From an uncultured Clostridium sp. (GTDB lineage: Bacteria > Bacillota > Clostridia > TANB77 > CAG-508), in NCBI GenBank assembly GCA_948467495.1, contig CAOKEO010000004.1, forward strand, positions 185-64,184: a stretch of DNA of 64,000 bases, in the 5' to 3' direction. The notes beneath the pieces were generated by a model. That model was not told the origin of the DNA, did not search any database, and was given only the letters and a program-made list of their open reading frames with translations. A program made the translations under genes and the position numbers. Of the stretch, positions 3,293 to 15,197 are shown one piece after another (position 1 is the stretch's first letter; every line of letters begins with the position of its first letter).

Positions 3293-3769
3293 TTAATGAC
3301 ACTCTTTTTTTCTTTCTCCTAATTTTTTACTATCTTCTTTTTGTATTAGACATTTTTCTGGTGGTTGCTGAAAACTTAAATACCAAGATATTCCATTTCT
3401 ATTTTTCTCAATTTCTTCCTTTCTTTTTTGTAATTCTGCAAAAGTCCTTGGCGGAGGAACAATCACTGGCTGACCTGGCATCCAGTTAGCTGCTGTGGAA
3501 CCCTTACTACAATCTGCCATCTGTAAGGCTTGCACAGTTCGAATAATTTCTGGAATAAAACGTCCAACATTGAGTGGATAAATTAAAATCGTTCTTACGA
3601 TTCCTTTATCATCAATAATAAAAACATTTCTTACTGTTTCTGTATTGCTAATATCATTAGCAATCATTCCATATTTTCTGGCAATTTGACCATTTCGGTC
3701 TGCAATAATGGGGAATGATACTTTCATTCCTGTTTTACAATAAATATCATACATCCAAGCTAAATGGGA
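3293..3769 (-). pseudogene. peroxiredoxin (AhpC/TSA, Prx6-like), 3' segment of a gene split into three pieces
   Basis: ...SH|LAWMYDIYCKTGMKVSFPIIADRNGQIARKYGM...NVFIIDDKGIVR... is the C-terminal two thirds of a peroxiredoxin. The frame is closed by TAA just upstream of the junction. Confidence 0.8.
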
Positions 3770-3846
3770 AGCATTGCGAATTTTACCAACTTAAAATCAT
3801 ACTTATTATATCAATTTCTAGGTTTATTATATTTTAATAGTAGTAA

Positions 3847-5436
3847 TCATGCACTTTGTATGATACATAGGTCATTTAACTGTTCATTTATGATATTCAG
3901 TTCTGAAAAATTAAAATAAATATAAATATTTTTATATTCATCTAATTCCACTCTGTCTATTAACTCATATAATATTTTCTTACTTGGTTTTTCCATCTCT
4001 AAAAATGTATCAATGACATTTTCTATTTCTTCATCATTTTCATGATTTTTTTGTTTGTTTTTTAATGTACTCATTTTATTTTCTGTATTCGATTTTTCTT
4101 TTTTTAGTCTTTCTCTTTCTTCGATAAAATCTTTTGAATACCTAAAATAATCCTCATTTGTTATCATTCCATTTACACTATCTAAATACATTTTATCAAT
4201 TTTTTTCGATACATCTGCTATTCTATTTTCTATCTCCTTTAAGTGAAACATTTCTTTTTCCATCAAAGTTTCATAGTTATTTTTGCATTTTTCGTATATA
4301 TGTTTCAATTCGTTCTTATCTGCATAGGTTTTACATATTTGCCTAATAATATACAAAGTTTTTTCTTCAAATTTGTTATAATTATAATTGCAAGTCTTAC
4401 ACTTTCTATCTTTTCCTCTTGCTAAACTACAGTCTATGTATCCTATTTTAGTGTTTTTACCTCTATAACATACTCTAGATTTTCTGCCACAATTATGACA
4501 AAATAGCAAACCTTTCAATAGAAAATCATGTTTTGTTGTTGATAAAGTTTTTTTACTTTTCATAATCTCTTGTACTTTAGCAAACAATTCTTTTGAAATA
4601 ATGGCATCATGCGTATTTTCCACTCTAATATATTCTTCTGGTGTTTTCTTCCTTTTCTTTTTGATTTTATAAGAAATAGAAACACACTTATTTTGAACGG
4701 TATTTCCAATATAGGCTTCATTTATGAGTATTGCTCTTATACTTTTCGGATTCCAAGTTTCTCTTTGATGACTCATGTTCCTATATTGACTTGGTGTTTT
4801 TATATTTTCTTGATCTAATATGGTTGCTATTTTTTGAAATCCATTTCCTTCTGAATATAATTCAAAAATTTGCTTCACTATGTAAGAAACATTGGTGTCA
4901 ATTTCTAGTTTGTTTTTTTGTGTTTTGCTTTTTTGATAGCCATAAGGTGCATAGCTTCCTAGATACTCACCTTTTAGTTCCTTTTCTTTTAGCACTCCTT
5001 TAATTTTTTTCGATATATCTTTGGCATACATATCATTTATAATTGCTTTAAATGGTGTTACATCATTATTAGTTGTATCAAAATAAGTATCTATTCCATC
5101 TAATATAGAAACATATCGAATATCGTTTTCTGGAAAATAATTTTCTATGTAATAACCTGTTTTTATATAGTCTCTACCAAGTCTTGATAAATCTTTGGTA
5201 ATGACCATATTAATTCTTTTTTCTTCTATGTCTGAAATCATTCTTTTAAATTCTGGTCTTTCAAAGGTTGTTCCTGAAATTCCATCATCTACATATTCAT
5301 CTATAAGAATATATTCATTTTCTTTGATGTATCTTTGCAATATATTTCTTTGATTTGATACACTTTCACTTTCTAATTTATCTCCATCTTCACGAGATAA
5401 ACGTATATAAATTCCTACTTTAAAAGTTTTATTCAT
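3847..5436 (-). CDS. large serine recombinase (resolvase/invertase N-domain plus recombinase and zinc-ribbon domains)
   Basis: VGIYIRLSREDGD...SVSNQR...DDGISGTTFERPEF...DLSRLGRD catalytic domain. Cys cluster CHNCG...C...CKTC. 529 aa. Confidence 0.9.
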   Translation of the reverse strand: MNKTFKVGIYIRLSREDGDKLESESVSNQRNILQRYIKENEYILIDEYVDDGISGTTFERPEFKRMISDIEEKRINMVITKDLSRLGRDYIKTGYYIENYFPENDIRYVSILDGIDTYFDTTNNDVTPFKAIINDMYAKDISKKIKGVLKEKELKGEYLGSYAPYGYQKSKTQKNKLEIDTNVSYIVKQIFELYSEGNGFQKIATILDQENIKTPSQYRNMSHQRETWNPKSIRAILINEAYIGNTVQNKCVSISYKIKKKRKKTPEEYIRVENTHDAIISKELFAKVQEIMKSKKTLSTTKHDFLLKGLLFCHNCGRKSRVCYRGKNTKIGYIDCSLARGKDRKCKTCNYNYNKFEEKTLYIIRQICKTYADKNELKHIYEKCKNNYETLMEKEMFHLKEIENRIADVSKKIDKMYLDSVNGMITNEDYFRYSKDFIEERERLKKEKSNTENKMSTLKNKQKNHENDEEIENVIDTFLEMEKPSKKILYELIDRVELDEYKNIYIYFNFSELNIINEQLNDLCIIQSA

Positions 5437-5497
5437 AATTGTTCCGATTGCTAAAAACCATAATTCATCATCCCCAATTCTTAGATTGGAAAAGAAT

Positions 5498-5593
5498 TGG
5501 TCTTTTGGCTAGGCAAATGAAATTTTAATTTATGAGGCGTACTTTTGTACGTTGATTAAATTAAAATTGAAATTTAACGACGCCAAAAGTCAA
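5498..5593. repeat. long imperfect palindrome (nested inverted repeats) upstream of the element A recombinase
   Basis: cttttggc...gccaaaag, aaattttaatttat...attaaattaaaatt, and ggcgtac tttt gtacgtt at the centre. Confidence 0.45.
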
Positions 5594-5640
5594 TTATTTT
5601 TCAATCTTTGTTCCTAGCAATCACCTGCTTAGGAAACATT

Positions 5641-5787
5641 CTAATACTTTTGCCTATTCTTTTCAATTTCTTCTTTTGTTTGTATTCCTTCTTTTATATA
5701 TATTTCAAATGCTTTTCCCATTTTCTCATATATATCTTCTTTTTCTGAATTAAATATACAATATACTTTATCTTTTTGTTCCTTCAT
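5641..5787 (-). CDS. small hypothetical protein (48 aa)
   Basis: AAGGTGA RBS plus ATG. Translates as MKEQKDKVYCIFNSEKEDIYEKMGKAFEIYIKEGIQTKEEIEKNRQKY. Below the ORF-track size cut-off. Confidence 0.3.
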   Translation of the reverse strand: MKEQKDKVYCIFNSEKEDIYEKMGKAFEIYIKEGIQTKEEIEKNRQKY

Positions 5788-5927
5788 ATTTCACCTTCTT
5801 TGAAATTGTCTTGTTATAGATATATTAAAAATCGTACAAAAAAATAACAAGTTTTTATTTTACTTGTTATTTCATAAAATTTGTATTTATTTTTAGACAC
5901 AATAATCCCTTTTAGATATTAGAATTT

Positions 5928-6869
5928 CTAGGTATCACTTGAGCAATTTTTAATATACAATATATTTTTATTTTGCAAACCTAATTTTATAATTTCCTTT
6001 CTAAGCCAAACGTTATCTAATTTCATAATCTCATTTTGAAACTTTTCATGAAATAATTTTTCCATATTGTTCTGCACTTCTAAATCTTTTGCCAACAAAT
6101 AACTTTTCCCCTCTTTTAAACAAATAAGATTCAGCATCCATTTTGTCCCAATACTATTTAATGTTTCATATATTATTTTTTTATTTTCTAATATGCTATC
6201 TTTATCCCATATTGTTACTTGTGCAAAAATTGGTGGCAAAATGTCATTTACATTTTCTATCTTTGTATCATTTTCTATTGCTTTTTTTAAATTATGATTA
6301 ATTGCTAATTGACATTCTTTAAAATACTTTTCTGGATATGTTTCATCCTTAATTATTTTTTCTAATTCTTTATAAGCAATAATATCTCTTTTCGTTGTTA
6401 TTTTTGCTTTTAAATTTAATGTATTATCTAAAATTGCAGACATAAGTAAAACTGCTAAATCCTCTGAAATTTGTCCAATCATGTGTTCTTTTTCAAATAA
6501 TTCAACTATTATGGTTGCTACTGAACCTATAAATTCTATTTGCGCTTTTTCTTTTAATTTATCTTTCCAATATATTTCATATCCTACATGGTGGTCTATG
6601 ATTCCAATTATCTTTTCTTCTTGTACAAATGTATCAAAATAATCTTTATTTGATACATCTATAATCACATACTCATCTTCTTTATCTGGTTTATATTCAT
6701 CTAATTTAGAAGCTAATTTCATAAGACTTAGGGTTATACTTTCATTTAATTTTGCTGTTGAAATAGCTTTTGCTTTTATCCCTTTCAAATTTAATAATTT
6801 AGCATAGGCAATACAACCTGCATAAGCATCTATATCTATGTATTTTTTTCCAGAGGTTACCACTACCAT
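5928..6869 (-). CDS. DHH/DHHA2-family phosphoesterase, similar to family II (PpaC-type) pyrophosphatases
   Basis: IDIDAYAG..., IIDHHVGYE (DHH motif), GSVATIIVE, LLMSAILDNTLNLKAKITTKRD. Last gene of a tight operon. Confidence 0.65.
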   Translation of the reverse strand: MVVVTSGKKYIDIDAYAGCIAYAKLLNLKGIKAKAISTAKLNESITLSLMKLASKLDEYKPDKEDEYVIIDVSNKDYFDTFVQEEKIIGIIDHHVGYEIYWKDKLKEKAQIEFIGSVATIIVELFEKEHMIGQISEDLAVLLMSAILDNTLNLKAKITTKRDIIAYKELEKIIKDETYPEKYFKECQLAINHNLKKAIENDTKIENVNDILPPIFAQVTIWDKDSILENKKIIYETLNSIGTKWMLNLICLKEGKSYLLAKDLEVQNNMEKLFHEKFQNEIMKLDNVWLRKEIIKLGLQNKNILYIKNCSSDT

Positions 6870-6870
6870 T

Positions 6871-8049
6871 TTATATTATCTCCTTTTCTTGTTCCTCTAA
6901 TCTTAATAAACGATTATACTTTGCAATTCTATCGCCTCTTCTTGGTCCTCCAATTTTTATATAGGTAGCATTTAATGCTACTGCTAAATCACACATAAAA
7001 GTATCTTCTGTTTCAATACTTCTTTGCGAAACACATGTTGTCATATTTTCTCTTTTTGCTTTACAAAAAGCATTTATGGTTCCTGTTAAAGTTCCTACTT
7101 GATTCATTTTTATTATGATACCATTTGCCAATTCACTATTGATGTATTTATCTCGTGTTGCAAATAAATCATCTCCTACAATACTAATAGTTTTATACTC
7201 TGATTTCATCTTTTTCCAATATGCTTCATCTTTTGAATCAAATGGGTCTTCTATATAGGTAATATTATATTTTTCAATATATTGATTTAATATATCATTT
7301 AGTTCGTTTGATTGTATTGTTTTACCTTGATAGATATAAATTTCATCTTTAAAAAAATGTTCTGCTGCTACATCGATTGCAATGGTTACCTTATTTTCAT
7401 AGTTTAAGGTTTTTATTGTATTTAATACCATTTCAAATTTTTCATCTATTGTCATTTCTTCTACAATCATTCCACTTGATGAACCATAGGCTATTAAAAT
7501 ATCTTTTTTCTTTAATTCATTTTCTATATAAGAATAAATGTCAGTAATTGCTTGTATGGCTTTTGAAAATGGGTGAATATCAACGGCGAGCATTATATTT
7601 TGAATGGAACCTTTTTCTTTTTGATTATGTACTCCACCAGAAAATGTCGCAATTAATGGAATTGGTGATTTCCTGTATTTCTTATAATTTGCTACCTTTT
7701 CTATATATTCTACCAATGTTAAATTTTGAATTTGTGCCATTATTCTTGCAAATGCTAATGAAAATGGCAAACAAATGTTAGAACCTAATTCATGCATATA
7801 ACTATCTAATATAGAATCAAATTCTTCTTGATTTTTTAGCTCTCTATTGCAAACTTCATATATCATCTCATTTAATTTGCTTTCGTTCACTTTATTGGTT
7901 GTTATTACTTCCCTTTTTCCAGGTATAATGGCTGATGGAGATGAACTAATGGCTCTTATATTATAATCTGTTCTTATTTCCACTTCTATGGCTTTTTTTC
8001 CAACTGAATTTAATATTTCTCTTATTTTAATTTCTTCTATTTTTATCAT
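6871..8049 (-). CDS. divergent enolase-family protein in which several catalytic residues appear substituted
   Basis: Enolase motifs IDVAAEHF, IEDPF, VGDDLFAT, IIKMNQVGT, SQRSIETED, IKIGGPRRGDRIAKYNRLLRLEE. QNIML replaces QEFMI and GSSSG replaces GDEGG. Confidence 0.75.
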   Translation of the reverse strand: MIKIEEIKIREILNSVGKKAIEVEIRTDYNIRAISSSPSAIIPGKREVITTNKVNESKLNEMIYEVCNRELKNQEEFDSILDSYMHELGSNICLPFSLAFARIMAQIQNLTLVEYIEKVANYKKYRKSPIPLIATFSGGVHNQKEKGSIQNIMLAVDIHPFSKAIQAITDIYSYIENELKKKDILIAYGSSSGMIVEEMTIDEKFEMVLNTIKTLNYENKVTIAIDVAAEHFFKDEIYIYQGKTIQSNELNDILNQYIEKYNITYIEDPFDSKDEAYWKKMKSEYKTISIVGDDLFATRDKYINSELANGIIIKMNQVGTLTGTINAFCKAKRENMTTCVSQRSIETEDTFMCDLAVALNATYIKIGGPRRGDRIAKYNRLLRLEEQEKEII

Positions 8050-9316
8050 TCAAAATCTCCTTTGTAATATAGGGAAAAATATCAATTGCTTTTTCGATTG
8101 GTAATTTTCCTTTACTAGCATTTTCTTCATCAAATTTTACACTTCCATCATTTTGCACATTTCCTCCTGCGATTAAGACTGGTACTTGATCCGTAGAATG
8201 AATTTTTAGTTCACATGGTGTAGCATGGTCACATGTTACAATTACAATATCATCTTCTTTTATGTCTTTTATTAGATTCGATAAAAAATATTGATCAATC
8301 AATTCAATTGCTTCCACTTTTTCTTTTGGTTTATTATCATGACCTGGCTCATCTGGTCCTTTTATATGAATAAATTTAACATCTGATTCATCTGCTACTA
8401 AAATTTTTTCAGCATTTATTAAAAATTCTTTATCTAATTGTAAATCTAAAGATTTAGAAAAAGTAAATTTGGCACCAATTAACTTTGCTATTGCATTTTC
8501 AGCTGGCAATTGACCATACATGGAAAGTGTAAGTCCAAACTTTTCTTGAAATTTTGGCATTTGCTTAGGTTCTTCTCCACCATCTCTAAAAATCAAATAA
8601 TTAGCTGCTAATTCACCTTTTTCTATTCTTTTTTTATTTACTTCGTTATTTGCTAAAATTTCACTTGACTGTTCTATAAAATCATTAACCATATTAGCAG
8701 TTAGTTTACTTTCTTCTTTTTCATCTAATGAAAAACACCTCAATGGTTTTGGTTCATAATTTTTTACAGGTGCTCCCCATACTCCATTTTTTCTAAATCC
8801 AGGGTCTGTGTTAGATACATTACCAGATAATTTTTCTGTTTTAGTATAAAAAACTAATATGCCTCTATGGTGTCCAAATGCTAATAATTTAAAGCTAACA
8901 TTATAGTTAGATAAATCCACATTTTCTGTTATATCTTTAGCTAAAGTTTGTAATTCTTCATCTTCTAATCCTCTAGCAGTTCTTCTATCTAAGGTTCCTA
9001 ATTTTTCATCATAAGAGGCAAAATTGACTCGAAAAGCTACATAATTGTATTCTTCTGGAATAAAGCCTGTTCCTAATCCTTCTAGTGTTCCTCTTCCTGG
9101 ATAATAAACTTGAGGGTCATAAGAAAGTAGCGCCATACTTCCTGAATCAGACTCTGGCGTTATACTTTTATCTATTACAGTTACTAATGCTTGTTTACCC
9201 TTTTTAACCAATGCATCTAATGCTGGTGTATTTGCAGCTTCTAAAGGCGTTTTATTGCCAAGCATTTCTATCTTTCTGTCTGCTGCCCCATCTAATAGAA
9301 TCATATAAATTTTCAT
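8027..9316 (-). CDS. archaeal-type cofactor-independent phosphoglycerate mutase-like metalloenzyme (ApgM family, alkaline-phosphatase superfamily)
   Basis: MKIYMILLDGAADR...GNKTPLEAANTPALDAL...PESDSGSMALLSYDP...GRGTLEG...IKGPDEPGHDN...CDHATP. Start taken at 9316; an alternative ATG lies at 9349. Confidence 0.7.
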   Translation of the reverse strand: MKIYMILLDGAADRKIEMLGNKTPLEAANTPALDALVKKGKQALVTVIDKSITPESDSGSMALLSYDPQVYYPGRGTLEGLGTGFIPEEYNYVAFRVNFASYDEKLGTLDRRTARGLEDEELQTLAKDITENVDLSNYNVSFKLLAFGHHRGILVFYTKTEKLSGNVSNTDPGFRKNGVWGAPVKNYEPKPLRCFSLDEKEESKLTANMVNDFIEQSSEILANNEVNKKRIEKGELAANYLIFRDGGEEPKQMPKFQEKFGLTLSMYGQLPAENAIAKLIGAKFTFSKSLDLQLDKEFLINAEKILVADESDVKFIHIKGPDEPGHDNKPKEKVEAIELIDQYFLSNLIKDIKEDDIVIVTCDHATPCELKIHSTDQVPVLIAGGNVQNDGSVKFDEENASKGKLPIEKAIDIFPYITKEILNDKNRRN

Positions 9317-9320
9317 ATTA

Positions 9321-9902
9321 CTATCTTCCCTTATTTTCATTTTCTTCATCTAAAAAACTTTTTATTCTTTGATCCAAGCTATGCTCTTTAATATAATGAT
9401 AAACAAATTTAGGAACAAATTGTTTCCATTCTTTTTCTTCTTGAATGCATTTTCTAATATCAGAAGCACTTATTCCTTTTTCTTCTAATGTAACTCTCCA
9501 TAAAACTTCAACATCTAATTTTAAATCATTTTGCAAAGATTTTAGTTTTTCTTCTCCCCATTCATCATAGATTGTCATATAATATTTTGCATCTAAAGGG
9601 GCATAATTAAAAATTTTGTCTGGGAAATTAATTGGAAAAGGAACAATATCAAATTCTTCTTGTTTTACTCCCGCTTCTATCATAGAATATTTAATACATT
9701 CCATCCTTTCAAAATAAGTAAGTGGATTAGAACTTTTCTTTGATCTATGAGGATTGGCATCTGTATATTTCGTTAAATCCACTTCTGGATTACAAATTCC
9801 TATTATTAAATGTTCACATCGCTCTTTTCCTGCTAATAAATATTTCATATGATCATTATGTAATAATTGAAATCTACCATGTATAACGCCTACTTTATCC
9901 AT
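9321..9902 (-). CDS. cytidylyltransferase-fold nucleotidyltransferase, NadM (archaeal NMN adenylyltransferase)-like
   Basis: GVIHGRFQLLHNDH (GRFQxxHxxH motif), LIIGI, and the C-terminal ISASDIR...WKQFVP pattern resemble archaeal NMNAT. First gene of the operon. Confidence 0.65.
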   Translation of the reverse strand: MDKVGVIHGRFQLLHNDHMKYLLAGKERCEHLIIGICNPEVDLTKYTDANPHRSKKSSNPLTYFERMECIKYSMIEAGVKQEEFDIVPFPINFPDKIFNYAPLDAKYYMTIYDEWGEEKLKSLQNDLKLDVEVLWRVTLEEKGISASDIRKCIQEEKEWKQFVPKFVYHYIKEHSLDQRIKSFLDEENENKGR

Positions 9903-10021
9903 CTTTCAAGACCTTCTTTCTCAAATATTTTATTGATTATATAATATTATGTTTAATATGTAAAGAAGTTCCTGAATATAATTTTTCTATAAATTGGGGT
10001 TAACTATCTTATTTCTCATTC

Positions 10022-10056
10022 AAAAAAACACCCTAGATTTAATTCTAAAGTGTTTT
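10022..10056 (-). terminator. candidate terminator after the HEPN gene
   Basis: Short aaacac/gtgttt stem followed by a T-run on the minus strand. Confidence 0.35.
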
Positions 10057-10078
10057 GGATTTTTATTTATATTTATCA

Positions 10079-10498
10079 TTATAAAATTTTCTTATTAATA
10101 TATTCTTCTACAAGTTTTATAAGTTCTTTTGCTGTTTCAATTTGAAGTAATGTATTATCTGGGTTTACTATAAATTCATCATCATAATCACTATCTTCTC
10201 GAACTTGACTTGCTCTTGCAATTCTTCTTCCCATTTTTCTTGGAAATATTTCTGTATTAATATAATTTTTATTAAAATAAGCTATCACATCTTTATGTCT
10301 TTTAAAATCTATTGGTTCTAAAGCTAATACACTTCTAATTGAATGAAAAATTGCATAGTAAGCTCTATTATTAGCTGATTTATATAGTTTTTCATGATAT
10401 AATACTTCGCATGCTTTGATATCTTCTTTTGCTTGTTCTAATCTGTGCAAAACTAATTCTTTTGATACTTTACACTCCATATAATACAACTCCTTCAT
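10079..10498 (-). CDS. HEPN domain protein (toxin half of a HEPN/MNT pair)
   Basis: Helical about 140 aa protein with ...YYAIFHSIRSVLA...ASQVREDSDYDD. Overlaps the upstream MNT gene by 29 nt. Confidence 0.7.
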   Translation of the reverse strand: MKELYYMECKVSKELVLHRLEQAKEDIKACEVLYHEKLYKSANNRAYYAIFHSIRSVLALEPIDFKRHKDVIAYFNKNYINTEIFPRKMGRRIARASQVREDSDYDDEFIVNPDNTLLQIETAKELIKLVEEYINKKIL

Positions 10499-10829
10499 TT
10501 TGAACGTTCCTATAAAAAGGTAATGCTTCTAACCAATAATTAAATTTATCAATATTTTTTATTAATGGAGAAATCAATACATCATTTTCTAATTCAATAT
10601 CATAAGCAAAATCCCATATTTTTTCACTATATTCTACTATTTCTTCATCTGTTAAGTCTGTTAGTATCATAATATCAATATCAGAGCTTGTATTAAAATC
10701 TCCTCTTGCATAAGAACCATAAAGGATGATTTTTTTTGCTCTATCTCCAAACATCTTATTTGCTTCCTTTAAAAATTCTTCAATAGATTTCTTTATTTTA
10801 GGTGGAATTTTCTTCTTCATATCTTTCAC
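10470..10829 (-). CDS. minimal nucleotidyltransferase (MNT) domain protein, antitoxin-type partner of HEPN
   Basis: LYGSYARGDFNTSSDIDIMIL is the pol-beta-type GS...DxD motif. Confidence 0.8.
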   Translation of the reverse strand: MKDMKKKIPPKIKKSIEEFLKEANKMFGDRAKKIILYGSYARGDFNTSSDIDIMILTDLTDEEIVEYSEKIWDFAYDIELENDVLISPLIKNIDKFNYWLEALPFYRNVQNEGVVLYGV

Positions 10830-10959
10830 CTCATCTTTATTTCCTTCATTTTATACAATTAGTATATCACTTTTAATTCTATTTTTCTACTAATTTTTAA
10901 TATTTTATACAGGTGATTGCTAATTTTATTCTTTTGTTGGTAAAATCTGGTATGTTTCA

Positions 10960-11064
10960 TGAGAACTATTACTATCAACACTTAAACCTAAAAGTTCTGT
11001 ATTCATTTCTTTAAAATATGTATGTGCCCTTGTAAAAGCTATCATTTCTGTTGTACACACTGGG
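10960..11064 (-). pseudogene. peroxiredoxin, middle segment (peroxidatic Cys region)
   Basis: The minus strand reads ...[37 protein letters not shown] and then leaves the family and stops. It lies between elements A and B. Confidence 0.75.
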
Positions 11065-11091
11065 GTAAAGTACACTTCTTTGAATGTGTTT

Positions 11092-12394
11092 TTATATTAT
11101 ATTTTCAATATTTCCTATACTATATAAAGGTATATTAATAAGCCAATCTTCTTTTCTATAATCAGACATTGATGTTCTGACATTTACTTTTGTGTTATAT
11201 TTCTTTACAAATGATTTTAAGCTTTTAGCTTTTAAATTTTCTTCTGATTTAACTTCTATTGGAACTACATTTATTCCTAACTGTACTATAAAATGCAGTT
11301 CAGCTGTAGCTCTTTCTGCACTCCAATAAAATACTGGTATGTCTTTATTAGATTTTAATTCAGTTAATACAAATTGCTCTGTAAAAGAGCCTTTAAACTC
11401 TGTAAATATTTCATTTCCTTCCAATAAAATTTTGGCATCTATTCTGGTCATAGCACCTAAAAGTCCAACATCTAGAATATAAAGCTTAAAAGCACTTGTA
11501 TCTTGGTAGGCTATAAGTGGAATATTAGGTCTGTTTACTCTGTCAATTTTATATATTAATCCACAGTCAATTAGCCATGCTAAAGCTAATTCATATTCTT
11601 TTGCTCTTGCGCCTTCTTTAATTAAACCATATATAAACTTTTTATTTTCTTTTGCCAATTGTGCTGGAATACTATTCCATAACATTTTTAGTCTAGGAAC
11701 AATTTCAGTAGGTGCATGTTTAGAAAAATCCTCTTCATATGCTTGCAATAATTTTAGTTGAGTTTTTCTAACTTGTTTATAATCTTTTGTTTCTATATAC
11801 TTATTTACTGCTGAAGGCATGCCACCTATAAAATAATATTCTCTTAAATAGGAAATAAATTTGTCTTTAAAAACATTGATTAAATCCCAATCATTTGCAT
11901 TTAATATTTCTACTAATTTTTCTTCTCCGAATAGCAAGTAAAAATTCTTGAAAATTCAATGGATATAAATCCATAAAATCAACTTTTCCAACTGGGAATG
12001 AAGTACCTTCATGTAAAGCAACTCCTAAAAGTGAACCAGCTGCTATAATATGATATTGCCCTGCATTCTCACAGAAATATTTAAGGGAAGTTAATGCTTT
12101 TGGTACTTCTTGAACTTCATCAAAAATGATTAATGTGTTTTCTTGATCAATATCAATATCCGCTTCCAATTTTAACCCTTTTACAATTCTATTTATATCA
12201 TAATCTTTTTCAAATAACCTTTTCATTCTATCATTGCCATCAAAATTTATGTAAGCAACATTTTTATAGTTATTTTTCCCAAATTCTTTCATAATCCATG
12301 TTTTTCCTACTTGTCTAGCCCCTTTTATTATTAGAGGTTTTCTATTTGCTGATTCTTTCCATTCTTCTAATTCTTTGATTTTATCACGATACAT
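11092..12394 (-). CDS. AAA+ ATPase with C-terminal DUF4143 domain; frame changes +1 at in-frame CGG 11927..11929
   Basis: Walker A GARQVGKT and DEVQ. ORFs 11891..12394 and 11092..11937 join as ...[18 protein letters not shown] when the C is skipped. Confidence 0.75.
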
Positions 12395-12578
12395 ATTTTT
12401 TACCTCCTTATGCTATTATATGTATATTATAACACATTTATACAAAAATACAAAGGATAATTTTATTATTTTTACATTTATTCAAAGGATTTTATGATAA
12501 AATAATACACTTTTTCAAACGAATTTTTATATTATGCTACACATCTTAGAAGAACATCTTGAAAATGATTACATTTTT

Positions 12579-14160
12579 TCAAACGAGTTTTTCAATATCA
12601 GTTTTTAAATCAAATCTAATAATTTTATCTTTGTCTATAAAAATTTTATTGATAATCATTTGTAATATCATTCTGTTAGGCTTCCCGAGTTTCAATAATT
12701 TCGTCAAAATAATCTGTTGCATTTTTCAATTTCTGAACTTCATCTTTAGTATTTTTCCTTTTATCACTTTCCATTAAAGAAGTTAAATATGATATACTAT
12801 TCATTTTTTCCTTTTCCAATTCTTTGTATGTATTTTCAATTAATTCTCTTTGTATAGAATTTGTCGTACATGCCAACTCTTTTATTTTTTGACTAACTAA
12901 CATTTTATATTCTTCGTTTGCTATATTTAATTTGTTTTGGAGCTTATGTTTATTATCTTCTTTTTTATCTTGTTTTATTTCAATTTTAATATTTTGTATC
13001 TCTTTTAAATATTGCTTTTTGGTAAATTTCAGAAATTCTTTCAAATGTATTAGTATATCCTTTTCTTTTACCTCGTGGCAATGACAAGCTTTCGTACTAA
13101 ACTGTCTATATTGGGAACAATCATATCCTTTTTCTTTTACTTTTCTTTTAATCATTATACCAGACATTCCTGAACCACAATCTGAACACTGACACATTCC
13201 TGAAAAATAATAATCTCTTTTGGCATTTGTACCTGAAGTATTTTGTTCTTTCTTTTTCTTTCTTATTTCTTGTGCTAAATTGAATATTTCTTTTGAAATA
13301 ATTGGCTCATGATGATTTTCAAATATAAAATGTTCTTCTTTTGGTAATTTTACAGCTTTTCCTCTAATATTTATGGTTTGCTTTTTATGCGTAATTAAAG
13401 TACCTGTATAAATTTCGTTTTTTAAGATATTACTTACCATATCTTTTGTCCAAGATGCTTGTACTTTATGCTTATACACTCGTCCTCGTTCTAAATGTTT
13501 CATTCTGTAATATGCTGATGGCGTTGGATAATTATATTTTGCATTTAATATTTCACTGATTTTTTGAAATCCATATCCCTTTTCAACATATAATTTAAAT
13601 ATTGTTTCAATAGCTGGTTTTAGTTCTTCTATGATATACAACATAGGAATATCATCTTTAAAAACCTTTTCATAACCATAGTAATTTCCCATAATTAGTC
13701 TCGCTGTTTTTTGTTTGGAATACATATGATCTCTTGTTTTCCTAGAACAGTCTTTTACATATCTTTCATTAAACCAAGTAGTAATTCCAATGCAATCATC
13801 TCTATCATTTAGCACATCATAGCTCCCACCCATTTCAGAAACTAATATTAAGTTTTTTTGCATATTTTTGAATTCATCGATAAGAACCAAAACTTTCCCA
13901 TTATTTCTTCCTATTCTTGATAGGTCTTTTGCTATAACTACATCAATTTTTCCTCCTTTTACTTTTTCTATCATTTTTGAAAATCGAGGTCTATTTAAAG
14001 TATATCCCGAAACATTGTCATCTATGTAGAAGTCATTATCTGATATAATCCAGTTACGAGTGGTAGCATATTCTTTGATGATTCTTTTTTGTTCTTCTAT
14101 GCTTGCATAATTTTCTCTGTCCTCGTCTCTGGACAATCTACAATATCCTACAACTGTCAT
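12579..14160 (-). CDS. large serine recombinase; C-terminus continues in the +1 frame after in-frame CGG 12685..12687
   Basis: VVGYCRLSRDED...DDNVSGYTLNRPRF...DLSRIGRN, and CQCSDCG zinc ribbon. The +1 continuation GKPNRMILQMIINKIFIDKDKIIRFDLKTDIEKLV resembles the usual C-terminal tail (compare recombinase A, KKILYELIDRVELDEYKNIYIYFNF). Confidence 0.85.
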
Positions 14161-14239
14161 TTTAATCTCTTTCCTTTCTCAAAGCATAATTTTAGGTTAC
14201 TGCTTCTCACATGACCTGATATTGCCTATGCATTGTATG

Positions 14240-14479
14240 TTAGCATACATTGTCTGTTAATTCCACTTGTTTCATAACTATTTTTTTAAGAAGCTCGGGA
14301 TAATTCTCTTTTCCTGTTATGAAAATAGCTATATGATATTTTTCTTTTTTGTATTTTTCAATTATTTCTTTTGTCTCCTGTTTTTCTAGTTCTTCTTCTG
14401 TTAAATAAATTTGCCTATATTTTGTATTAGAAATTTCATTAGAAGTAATTTGCATTCTATTTAACTCCTTCGCAATCAT
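14240..14479 (-). CDS. hypothetical protein (79 aa)
   Basis: ORF only. Lies upstream of recombinase B on the same strand. Confidence 0.4.
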   Translation of the reverse strand: MIAKELNRMQITSNEISNTKYRQIYLTEEELEKQETKEIIEKYKKEKYHIAIFITGKENYPELLKKIVMKQVELTDNVC

Positions 14480-14672
14480 TCTCTCTAAATATTATGCAAA
14501 AAGTAATAGCATTTATTTCTTTTCGTCTAAAAATGGTACATTTTTATAAAATTTATATATCCTTCAATATATAAAAGTCCATTTTTCAATTAGATGTTGC
14601 ATTTTAGAAAATTTATCTTTTTTTATTTCTTATATGTGAATATTGTTACTATACTATTGATAAAATAATACA

Positions 14673-14722
14673 ACACGAAGTAGTTGAAATAAATGATATT
14701 TTCAACTACTTCGTGTTTTTTT
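14673..14722. terminator. strong hairpin (17-bp perfect stem) with flanking T/A runs, bidirectional terminator candidate
   Basis: acacgaagtagttgaaa ... tttcaactacttcgtgt followed by TTTTTT. Confidence 0.6.
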
Positions 14723-14739
14723 CTCGTTTTCTCTCTCCT

Positions 14740-14967
14740 TTAGATATCTTTATTGGCTAAAAAAGTAACAAATTCTATAAACCAATCATTTCTAAAAGTA
14801 GCAGAACCCGTATTGACTGGAACACCGGGAAAAGTTTTAGTATGCCATTCTTCATACAATTTTGTAAATGTTACAAAATCGCAATTTAATTCCCCGTAAT
14901 CTTGCAAACTTCTTAATAATTGCCGTAGATCAATTTCTCCTTTAGGATAAAGAGTAAATGCTTTCAT
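14740..14967 (-). CDS. hypothetical protein (75 aa); contains an in-frame CGG (14923..14925) that does not break the ORF
   Basis: AAGGAGG RBS 8 nt before the ATG. No recognisable family. Confidence 0.5.
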   Translation of the reverse strand: MKAFTLYPKGEIDLRQLLRSLQDYGELNCDFVTFTKLYEEWHTKTFPGVPVNTGSATFRNDWFIEFVTFLANKDI

Positions 14968-15197
14968 TGGAATACCTCCTTTATGAAATCTATGTTATCG
15001 AGTTTCTGTCTATATTATATTCTTGTATTTTGTATTTTATGTCTAATAAATTATTCATGGTTTAAAAAATTCATTACTAAATCTACTATTATCTTTTTTT
15101 CTTTTGGATTTGATTCCGCTATTAATAGAGTTAATGCCGTTAATATATTATTATCAGGCATTTCGTTTATTCATCCAAAGATGTAGACTTTACGGGA

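Follow-up and report, generated by a model that had tools for sequence, protein, structure and literature searches.

To our knowledge, the chemistry of PhpF, PhpG and PhpH has so far been seen as peculiar to actinomycetes and their biosynthesis of phosphinothricin. In the Streptomyces pathway to phosphinothricin tripeptide (PTT, bialaphos), PhpF is a CTP:phosphonoformate nucleotidyltransferase (NTase) of Pfam family PF01467 that resembles nicotinamide mononucleotide (NMN) adenylyltransferase (NMNAT) (PMC4748306, PMC6697681), phpH is annotated as the gene of a carboxyphosphonoenolpyruvate (CPEP) synthase and its product is an enolase homologue (PMC4748306), and the name of NCBIfam model NF038358 gives 3-phosphoglycerate as the acceptor of PhpG, which acts between the other two enzymes. 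This study concerns a four-gene operon in a window of 64,000 nucleotides (the whole stretch of DNA analysed, positions 185 to 64,184 of contig CAOKEO010000004.1, assembly GCA_948467495.1) from an uncultured Clostridium sp. The operon encodes an NTase, a mutase-like protein and an enolase-like protein, hereafter the trio, and a DHH/DHHA2 protein that completes the quartet. By sequence comparison, the three proteins of the trio are securely homologues of PhpF, PhpG and PhpH. We consider, with moderate confidence, that the operon represents a PhpFGH-type module that builds an analogue of phosphoenolpyruvate (PEP), together with a dedicated phosphoanhydride hydrolase; this reading is supported by homology, shared derived residues, operon structure, conserved synteny, gene fusions and the absence of phosphonate genes. 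The four genes are the following.

9321-9902, minus strand: NTase gene, PhpF-like, 193 aa; open reading frame (ORF) with the Pfam domain CTP_transf_like
8027-9316, minus strand: mutase-like gene, PhpG-like, 429 aa; ORF with the Pfam domains PhosphMutase and Metalloenzyme, ApgM/alkaline-phosphatase fold
6871-8049, minus strand: enolase-like gene, PhpH-like, 392 aa; ORF with the Pfam domains Enolase_N and Enolase_C
5928-6869, minus strand: DHH/DHHA2 phosphohydrolase gene, 313 aa; ORF with the Pfam domain DHH

The NTase stop (9321) and the mutase-like start (9316) are separated by a 4-nt gap, 23 nt (8027/8049) are shared by the mutase-like and enolase-like genes, and one base lies between the enolase-like stop (6871) and the DHH start (6869); the four translationally coupled genes appear to form one transcription unit. 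An alternative upstream ATG at 9349 would extend the mutase-like protein to 440 aa (ORF 8027-9349). The start at 9316 is more likely, since a AAGGGAAG ribosome-binding site lies 8 nt upstream of it, relatives begin with MKIYMI, and public gene calls use the same start. The quartet consists of long ORFs in DNA of 24-31% G+C, and all four genes are under purifying selection, with ratios of nonsynonymous to synonymous substitution rates (dN/dS) of 0.04-0.32 against three relatives. Together with the conserved gene neighbourhood described below, this goes well beyond chance. A first-pass annotation of this DNA had already described four coupled minus-strand genes with these junctions and motifs (GRFQLLHNDH, LLDGAADR, ESDSGS, GPDEPGH, CDHATP, IIDHH and GSVATI), all of which were recovered here, and its four fold assignments agree with the Pfam domains.

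The mutase-like protein passed the PhpG model NF038358 with 591.2 bits (cut-off 545) and the apgM subfamily model with 332 bits (cut-off 320), the latter far below its own PhpG score; an authentic PhpG from a PTT-type cluster scored 665.7 bits on NF038358. Its identity to PhpG of authentic PTT-type clusters is 46%, and its identity to ordinary ApgM-type proteins does not exceed 42%. In a neighbour-joining tree, the trio-linked mutase-like proteins, authentic PhpG included, were split from 80 ApgM-type proteins in 100 of 100 bootstraps, and the low-GC members were not monophyletic relative to the actinobacterial ones. The Ser nucleophile and the metal-ligand motifs are invariant across the family. 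As a matter of naming, relatives are publicly called '2,3-bisphosphoglycerate-independent phosphoglycerate mutase', and the NF038358 equivalog would label the window protein a phosphonoformyl transferase, though no phosphonoformate pathway is evident.

The active site of the enolase-like protein was read by alignment to M. jannaschii enolase (PDB 2pa6). The window protein retains the three Mg ligands as well as Lys396, Arg374, Ser375, His159 and the base Lys345, whereas the Ser39 loop GASTGxxEA has become AIIPGKRE (Ser39 to Ile), Glu168 has become Gln, and Asp210-Glu211 has become Ser-Ser; the protein fails the eno model TIGR01060 (231.5 bits, cut-off 300). Since the loop AIxxG(K/R)RE, E168Q and the exchange of D210/E211 for (A/S)S occur in every trio-linked enolase homologue, PhpH of the PTT-type locus L039 included, these active-site changes represent a PhpH-family signature and not decay. 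The view of this protein as a degenerate enolase, or as a pseudogene, was ruled out by the same family-wide conservation together with a dN/dS of 0.20-0.29. The window protein is 32-34% identical to PhpH of authentic PTT-type clusters, and the sub-threshold NMNAT and eno matches of the window proteins recur with authentic PhpF and PhpH.

By the alignment, it is the residues acting on the leaving hydroxyl at C3 that have been lost. Since the acidic residues that protonate this hydroxyl are exchanged for Gln and Ser, we infer that another group leaves, as an anion, and the simplest candidate is the 3-phosphate of a 2-substituted 3-phosphoglycerate, which would fit the NCBIfam naming of 3-phosphoglycerate as the PhpG acceptor. 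With glycolytic ApgM and enolase, the window proteins have in common the folds, the metal and nucleophile motifs, Lys345, Lys396 and the Mg ligands, and they differ by the separate mutase clade, the loss of E168, E211 and Ser39, and the pairing with an NTase. The earlier statement that the set is not one of ordinary glycolysis is correct.

Motifs of the NTase are HxxH (within GRFQLLHNDH), ISASDIR and an NPHRS loop specific to the family. Its identity is 44-46% to PhpF of PTT-type clusters (L039-L042; L numbers denote loci and P numbers proteins), 60-62% to NTases linked to SelD in the sister operons described below, and about 18-20% to archaeal NMNAT. Compared with NMNAT, both the NTase and PhpF have a common inserted loop with an invariant Arg and a five-residue deletion that removes the nicotinamide-stacking (NMN-binding) Trp loop; the inserted loop reads NPHRS in window-type and SelD-linked NTases, as against LERG or PNRG in PTT PhpF. 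The archaeal NMNAT-like character proposed earlier therefore stands for the fold, as the AlphaFold2 (AF2) model (predicted local distance difference test score, pLDDT, 88.9) found its best structural match in archaeal NMNAT (template modelling score, TM, 0.71/0.81), and it fails for the identity as NMNAT, since the Trp loop is deleted and all NMNAT/NadD models were failed (TIGR01527, 42.8 against a cut-off of 181; PRK01153, 57.1 against 127). Relatives of the NTase bear the public name 'nicotinate-nucleotide adenylyltransferase', which, on the sequence comparison, looks like a misannotation. For annotation in practice, trio proteins bear the public names nicotinic acid mononucleotide (NaMN) adenylyltransferase, phosphoglycerate mutase and enolase, and NF038358 would add that of a phosphonoformyl transferase in organisms without signs of phosphonoformate production.

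Homologues of the NTase fall into 456 clusters at 50% identity (E<=1e-10) and 2,134 clusters at 90% identity, in a set that also takes in more distant NTase-only proteins. Gene fusions are found among them. The NTase forms the N-terminal part of NTase-mutase (PhpG-like) fusions in L038, P0263 and P0371, DHH(-DHHA2)-NTase fusions occur in P0262 and P0347, and fusions to histidine-phosphatase and HAD domains exist as well. In the representative library, PhpF-like NTase domains are also fused to TIR with NB-ARC/STAND, to Pycsar/CBASS-type TIR, to PPDK_N with a PEP-utilizer dikinase, and to radical SAM domains (P0306, P0312, P0325, P0247, P0274 and P0260), and these wider architectures hint at broader roles of the family, immune-type proteins included.

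Gene neighbourhoods were compared between 47 core loci, in which the mutase-like protein has an identity of 44% or more to that of the window, and 81 lower-identity (ordinary ApgM-type) loci; many entries of the census sample one and the same place more than once. Of the 47 core loci, 45 have the enolase-like gene as a neighbour and 40 the NTase gene, versus a single ApgM-type locus (1 of 81) with either neighbour. Authentic PTT-type clusters (L039 and L041, 69% G+C) were recovered in the metagenome scan, with PEP mutase (PepM), phosphonopyruvate decarboxylase (Ppd), PhpG and a PhpK-family P-methyltransferase all above curated cut-offs, and also with a homocitrate-synthase-like gene and an ORF resembling a nonribosomal peptide synthetase (NRPS), a call made from its N-terminal sequence alone. 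PepM occurs only in three actinobacterial loci (L036, L039 and L041), and Ppd likewise only there. In the flanks of the 44 low-GC loci and in the window, no PEP mutase, Ppd or CPEP-mutase family protein was found, and the precomputed Pfam annotation of all low-GC flanks holds no PEP_mutase-family protein (PhpI).

The combination of genes had not been recognised as a described pathway in the first-pass annotation, and it is that of PhpF, PhpG and PhpH of PTT biosynthesis (NF038358, PMC4748306, PMC6697681). The window has the same three families side by side, a protein that passes the PhpG model, the PhpH substitutions and the NMNAT-like fold with the inserted loop, and the logic is presumed to be the same, namely an anion activated by a nucleoside monophosphate (NMP), its transfer to phosphoglycerate and an enolpyruvyl product. 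Unlike the Streptomyces system, the window is without PEP mutase, Ppd, a phosphonoformate-forming enzyme, CPEP mutase, P-methylase and NRPS; its host belongs to the low-GC gut Clostridia, and the operon has a dedicated DHH hydrolase, the NPHRS loop and an H373Q exchange, and is found as mobile-element cargo or linked to a LysR-type gene. A PhpF/G/H-type trio is widespread in gut Firmicutes, where it is fully uncoupled from enzymes of the C-P bond, and these bacteria therefore probably make one or more PEP analogues not yet characterised. MurA, EPSP synthase and enolase are classic targets of inhibition by PEP analogues.

Several architectures surround the trio. The window's own DHH type is found in at least 10 loci of related Clostridia as a chromosomal series of a LysR-type regulator gene, the quartet and spoIIID, with variants in L120 and in L038, the latter with the NTase-mutase fusion. 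In L033, the trio is accompanied by a histidine phosphatase, an unassigned protein and a Roc-COR protein.

Along its whole length, the DHH protein can be aligned with B. subtilis PpaC (PDB 1k23), a family II pyrophosphatase with the same two-domain DHH/DHHA2 architecture. It keeps the metal ligands D13, D15, D75, H97 and H98 and the pyrophosphate (PPi)-binding residues K205, R295 and K296 of the DHHA2 domain. The metal ligand His9 is Lys in the window protein and Ser, Thr, Tyr or Asn in relatives, and is never retained in the trio-linked subfamily, and motif IV reads LDNT, with D149 shifted by one position, as against SD(S/T) in PpaC; the PpaC model NF003877 is failed (92.6 bits, cut-off 283). 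The resemblance to family II pyrophosphatase noted earlier thus holds for the full-length alignment and the PPi-binding residues, and not for the full metal set or the PpaC model. The subfamily is specifically linked or fused to PhpF-like NTases. As the DHH-NTase fusions P0262 and P0347 show the same features (His9 lost, LDNT), the function of the DHH protein can be tied to the nucleotidyl-transfer step. PPi removal is most likely its role and the simplest one, since PhpF assays, which were run with added pyrophosphatase, need it. The earlier idea that PPi hydrolysis pulls nucleotidyl transfer forward is plausible in this light, although the altered metal site and the failed PpaC model count against it.

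On the PTT precedent, a reaction sequence can be proposed in which the NTase would condense a nucleoside triphosphate (CTP by precedent) with a small phosphate-like anion, X-PO3, to yield an NMP-X mixed anhydride and PPi. The anion is phosphonoformate in Streptomyces and would here be supplied from elsewhere in the cell. The DHH/DHHA2 protein would hydrolyse PPi or a closely related anhydride and pull this unfavourable step forward, the Ser/metal centre of the ApgM-like protein would then move the X-phosphoryl group from NMP to the 2-hydroxyl of 3-phosphoglycerate, and the enolase-fold protein, with its base Lys and Mg ligands kept, would take the C2 proton and eliminate the C3 leaving group, most likely the 3-phosphate, to give an X-enolpyruvate. 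In this scheme, we infer the order of the reactions, which acceptor and which leaving group are used, what X is, and that the DHH protein acts as a pyrophosphatase. The order of mutase, enolase and nucleotidyl transfer given in the first-pass annotation is at odds with the precedent of NTase, mutase-like transfer and enolase-fold elimination, with which the NTase-mutase fusions agree. In concept, the scheme resembles the Streptomyces cluster for AroA-type arsenoenolpyruvate synthase, which makes a PEP analogue from a phosphate analogue by an unrelated enzyme, a homologue of EPSP synthase. This arseno-organic cluster was dropped as a homologous precedent, since it uses an AroA homologue and not homologues of enolase and phosphoglycerate mutase.

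Phosphonoformate itself is unlikely to be the substrate of the low-GC trio, since no phosphonate genes stand beside the trio in any low-GC locus. Our best guess for X is selenophosphate, taken to be the anion of the sister operons linked to SelD as well; these operons, and the likeness of the window NTase to theirs in identity and substrate loop, are the one lead to X. The trio is joined by SelD, a NifS-like desulfurase and a protein anchored in the membrane in L025 (6857-13147), L030 (6940-13011) and L118 (4809-11011); in L028 (7384-12932), also of the SelD type, the membrane-anchored protein is fused to the mutase-like protein (9543-11750), and in L116 (5278-12868) the trio is found with a PPDK_N-type dikinase and SelD. 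There are at least five distinct sister architectures with SelD, with or without NifS, inside the trio operon, and the operon SelD proteins, which have the Cys-x-x-Lys motif, score 238 and 202 bits on TIGR00476 (cut-off 125). The membrane-anchored partner (P0390, 9045-10004 of L030, and its homologues) belongs to no family and has four invariant cysteines; its AF2 model (pLDDT 76) has at its C-terminus a phospholipase D (PLD)-like domain (Zucchini, Nuc, PPK1) that lacks an HKD motif, and the same type of partner also occurs in histidine-phosphatase-type operons.

It is conceivable, if still clearly the less probable case, that the low-GC trio forms an unrecognised route from selenophosphate, or from another chalcogen or phosphate-analogue anion, to a seleno-PEP-type intermediate. 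The selenium chemistry is hinted at by the repeated SelD architectures, by the 60-62% identity of the NTase to the SelD-linked type, by the NPHRS loop that authentic PhpF does not have, and by the Cys-rich membrane-anchored PLD-fold protein added in SelD-type operons. The DHH-type operon of the window would then use the housekeeping SelD and would have spread on serine-recombinase elements; SelD, NifS and the PLD-fold protein were not found within the 64-kb window. In selenoneine biosynthesis (SenC/SenB/SenA), a dedicated SelD feeds SenB, and the sister trio operons likewise hold a dedicated SelD with a NifS-like desulfurase; unlike that system, no SenB- or SenA-type enzyme is found with the trio, and the window operon is without SelD. 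An association of the trio with SelD or selenophosphate was not found in the selenium literature searched. As SelD has been recruited repeatedly, a new selenium metabolite is a concrete possibility that can be tested; if true, the route would give gut Clostridia a new way into small molecules that contain selenium.

Several observations weigh against a PhpFGH-type module with a dedicated hydrolase. The functions of the enzymes in the low-GC branch rest on comparison with the PTT precedent, and the reaction details of PhpG and PhpH used here are those reportedly described by Blodgett et al. in 2007, together with the NCBIfam product name. The exchange of His373 for Gln is confined to the clade of the window enolase-like protein, where it is conserved in all eight members examined (the window and seven relatives), and it distinguishes this clade from authentic PhpH. 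With His9 lost, motif IV altered and the PpaC model failed, the DHH protein may perhaps not be a pyrophosphatase, and the histidine-phosphatase and HAD fusions of the NTase could point to a phosphomonoesterase partner instead. L002 (9338-12449) and L010 (10019-12458) keep the pair of mutase-like and enolase-like genes alone, so this two-gene core may work or persist without NTase and DHH. Quartet members are frameshifted in several metagenome-assembled genomes or contigs (L001 3087-4263; L004 3534-4707; L012 980-2156; L126 10809-11952, from the window's own population; the DHH gene in L007 and L008; the mutase-like gene in L013), which represents either a dispensable operon decaying in some lineages or assembly errors. 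As to the surroundings of the isolated pairs, an HD-domain protein stands ahead of the pair in L002, where the NTase would be, and the pair of L010 lies between dapF and murE.

The product could serve as a regulated metabolite, act as an antimetabolite or be an effector in conflicts. As to its genomic setting, the quartet lies in one of two elements that interrupt a peroxiredoxin (prx) gene, with the following features.

About 3767-10958, between the middle and C-terminal prx pieces: element A, about 7.2 kb, serine-recombinase element with the quartet, placed by tblastn and junction reading
3847-5436, minus strand: large serine recombinase of element A, 529 aa; Pfam Resolvase, Recombinase and Zn_ribbon_recom
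10079-10829, minus strand: HEPN (10079-10498) and MNT (10470-10829) pair; Pfam HEPN and NTP_transf_2, PADLOC PDC-S09
About 11070-15190: element B, with a frameshifted AAA_14/DUF4143 ATPase, recombinase B and two small ORFs
About 15367-15191, 11069-10959 and 3766-3293, minus strand: prx pieces, located by tblastn with a peroxiredoxin consensus

A single insertion into prx was ruled out, since tblastn with the consensus found the third, middle piece, and there are therefore two separate elements; the duplications at the junctions are short, no more than a few residues (FTPV; SH). The same composite with an identical NTase is present in at least 19 contigs from several samples, and the sister species L011 (synonymous divergence dS of about 0.3) has the same three-piece prx layout, which suggests long-standing, possibly excisable intervening elements in a gene not devoted to sporulation. 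Element A resembles the skin element (SpoIVCA) in its large serine recombinase at one end, the interrupted chromosomal gene and the short junction duplications, and differs from it in its target, a peroxiredoxin and not a sporulation gene, in the two independent elements that leave three pieces, and in that excision is putative. In L011, element A carries an Abi_2 gene and an unassigned gene in the slot held here by HEPN/MNT. As L011 keeps the quartet while this slot differs, the quartet is the constant cargo of element A, beside a variable toxin or abortive-infection slot. A phage or plasmid origin was ruled out, as tblastn of phage and plasmid collections gave only distant ApgM-type genes (at most 34% identical) and the scan of viral contigs gave none. 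The description of the quartet as mobile-element cargo beside a HEPN/MNT pair thus applies to the window; obligatory residence on such an element does not follow, given the chromosomal loci behind the LysR-type gene.

That the operon makes a toxic nucleotide anhydride or PEP analogue against phages or competitors, a matter of role only and compatible with the chemistry proposed above, seems to us unlikely, though it fares better than the other alternatives. The constant quartet next to a slot that varies between HEPN/MNT and Abi_2 agrees with it, as do the defence-type neighbours of the trio elsewhere (IetA with 237 bits in L120, a TIR-domain protein in L030 and a Roc-COR-LRR protein in L033), the conjugative or integrative and conjugative element (ICE) contexts of some trio relatives, and the family NTases fused to TIR, NB-ARC and STAND domains (P0306, P0312 and P0325). 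Against this, none of the four quartet proteins matched PADLOC-DB 2.0, where only the neighbours did (HEPN/MNT as PDC-S09 and AAA_14/DUF4143 as PDC-S01), and the defence-type module envisaged in the first-pass annotation keeps its HEPN/MNT neighbour and otherwise amounts to guilt by association. In the 10 or more chromosomal loci, moreover, the quartet occupies a conserved site behind the LysR-type gene, like a regulated metabolic operon; no relative was found on viral contigs, phages and plasmids have only the distant ones, and no self-resistance gene is evident.

An improbable alternative places the NTase last, so that a glycerate- or enolpyruvate-phosphate would be converted to an NDP-glycerate or NDP-enolpyruvate donor (compare EPPG in F420 biosynthesis) for a cofactor or for decorating the cell surface, in line with the nucleotide-linked phospho-acid proposed in the first-pass annotation. 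Some SelD-type loci do lie within capsule- or teichoic-acid-like clusters (NeuB, CMP-transferase, LicC with choline kinase, Wzz and CpsB). The PTT precedent and the N-terminal position of the NTase in the NTase-mutase fusions nevertheless speak for the NTase acting first, and no donor-consuming transferase is conserved beside the quartet.

We regard as more doubtful still that the trio acts on phosphonoformate or another phosphonate made elsewhere in the genome or taken up from the gut, in salvage, detoxification or a split cluster. The PhpG equivalog cut-off passed by the mutase-like protein and the active-site signature common to the enolase-like protein and authentic PhpH speak for this case, whereas the phosphonate genes are missing from all 44 low-GC loci (PEP mutase, Ppd, CPEP-mutase) while PepM is present in all three actinobacterial ones, the substrate loop of the NTase is NPHRS and not the LERG or PNRG of PhpF, and the sister operons recruit SelD and not phosphonate enzymes. 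Finally, it is very improbable that the operon holds spare copies of central-metabolism genes (for an enolase, a pyrophosphatase, an NMN/NaMN adenylyltransferase and a phosphoglycerate mutase that is independent of a cofactor) despite the public names of relatives and the passed apgM model, as the enolase-like protein is without E168, E211 and the Ser39 loop and fails the eno cut-off, the NTase is without the Trp loop and fails the NMNAT/NadD cut-offs, the DHH protein fails that of PpaC, and the mutase-like protein clusters with PhpG, away from ApgM.

Transcription signals around the quartet were located as follows.

9936-9964, minus strand: sigma-70-like promoter candidate TTTACA-17-TATAAT, 11/12 matches, in the 176-nt gap 5' of the NTase gene
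5834-5873, minus strand: A+T-rich hairpin followed by a T-run, candidate intrinsic terminator of the operon (deltaG -10 kcal/mol, z -2.8)
10025-10056, minus strand: hairpin and T-run 3' of the HEPN gene (deltaG -13.2 kcal/mol, z -4.7)

The promoter scan of the window was not above chance overall (78 found versus 83.7 expected), and the site at 9936-9964 is positional evidence only. The hairpin at 5834-5873 was overlooked by a G+C-biased terminator scan, and that at 10025-10056 sets the transcription of HEPN/MNT apart from the quartet promoter. An Rfam search of the element gave nothing except two sub-threshold chance miRNA hits, with no riboswitch or known RNA among the matches.

Further features were seen in the two elements. 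Between the operon terminator and the recombinase hairpin lies a 48-codon ORF (5640-5786, minus strand) that matches no family, has a good ribosome-binding site and is annotated as a gene in every related contig. In element B, the AAA_14/DUF4143 ATPase (11092-12394, minus strand; PADLOC PDC-S01, 354 and 260 bits) is split into two overlapping ORFs, and since the same split appears in all six related places compared, which represent 19 contigs, it is a real frameshift or pseudogene and not a sequencing error. Just 5' of the start of recombinase A (5436), a hairpin of about 180 nt (5446-5622, minus strand; deltaG -50 kcal/mol, z -4.9) has no Rfam match; its outer arms are conserved in L011 and L004, and its inner part of about 110 nt is a palindromic insertion present only in the window lineage.

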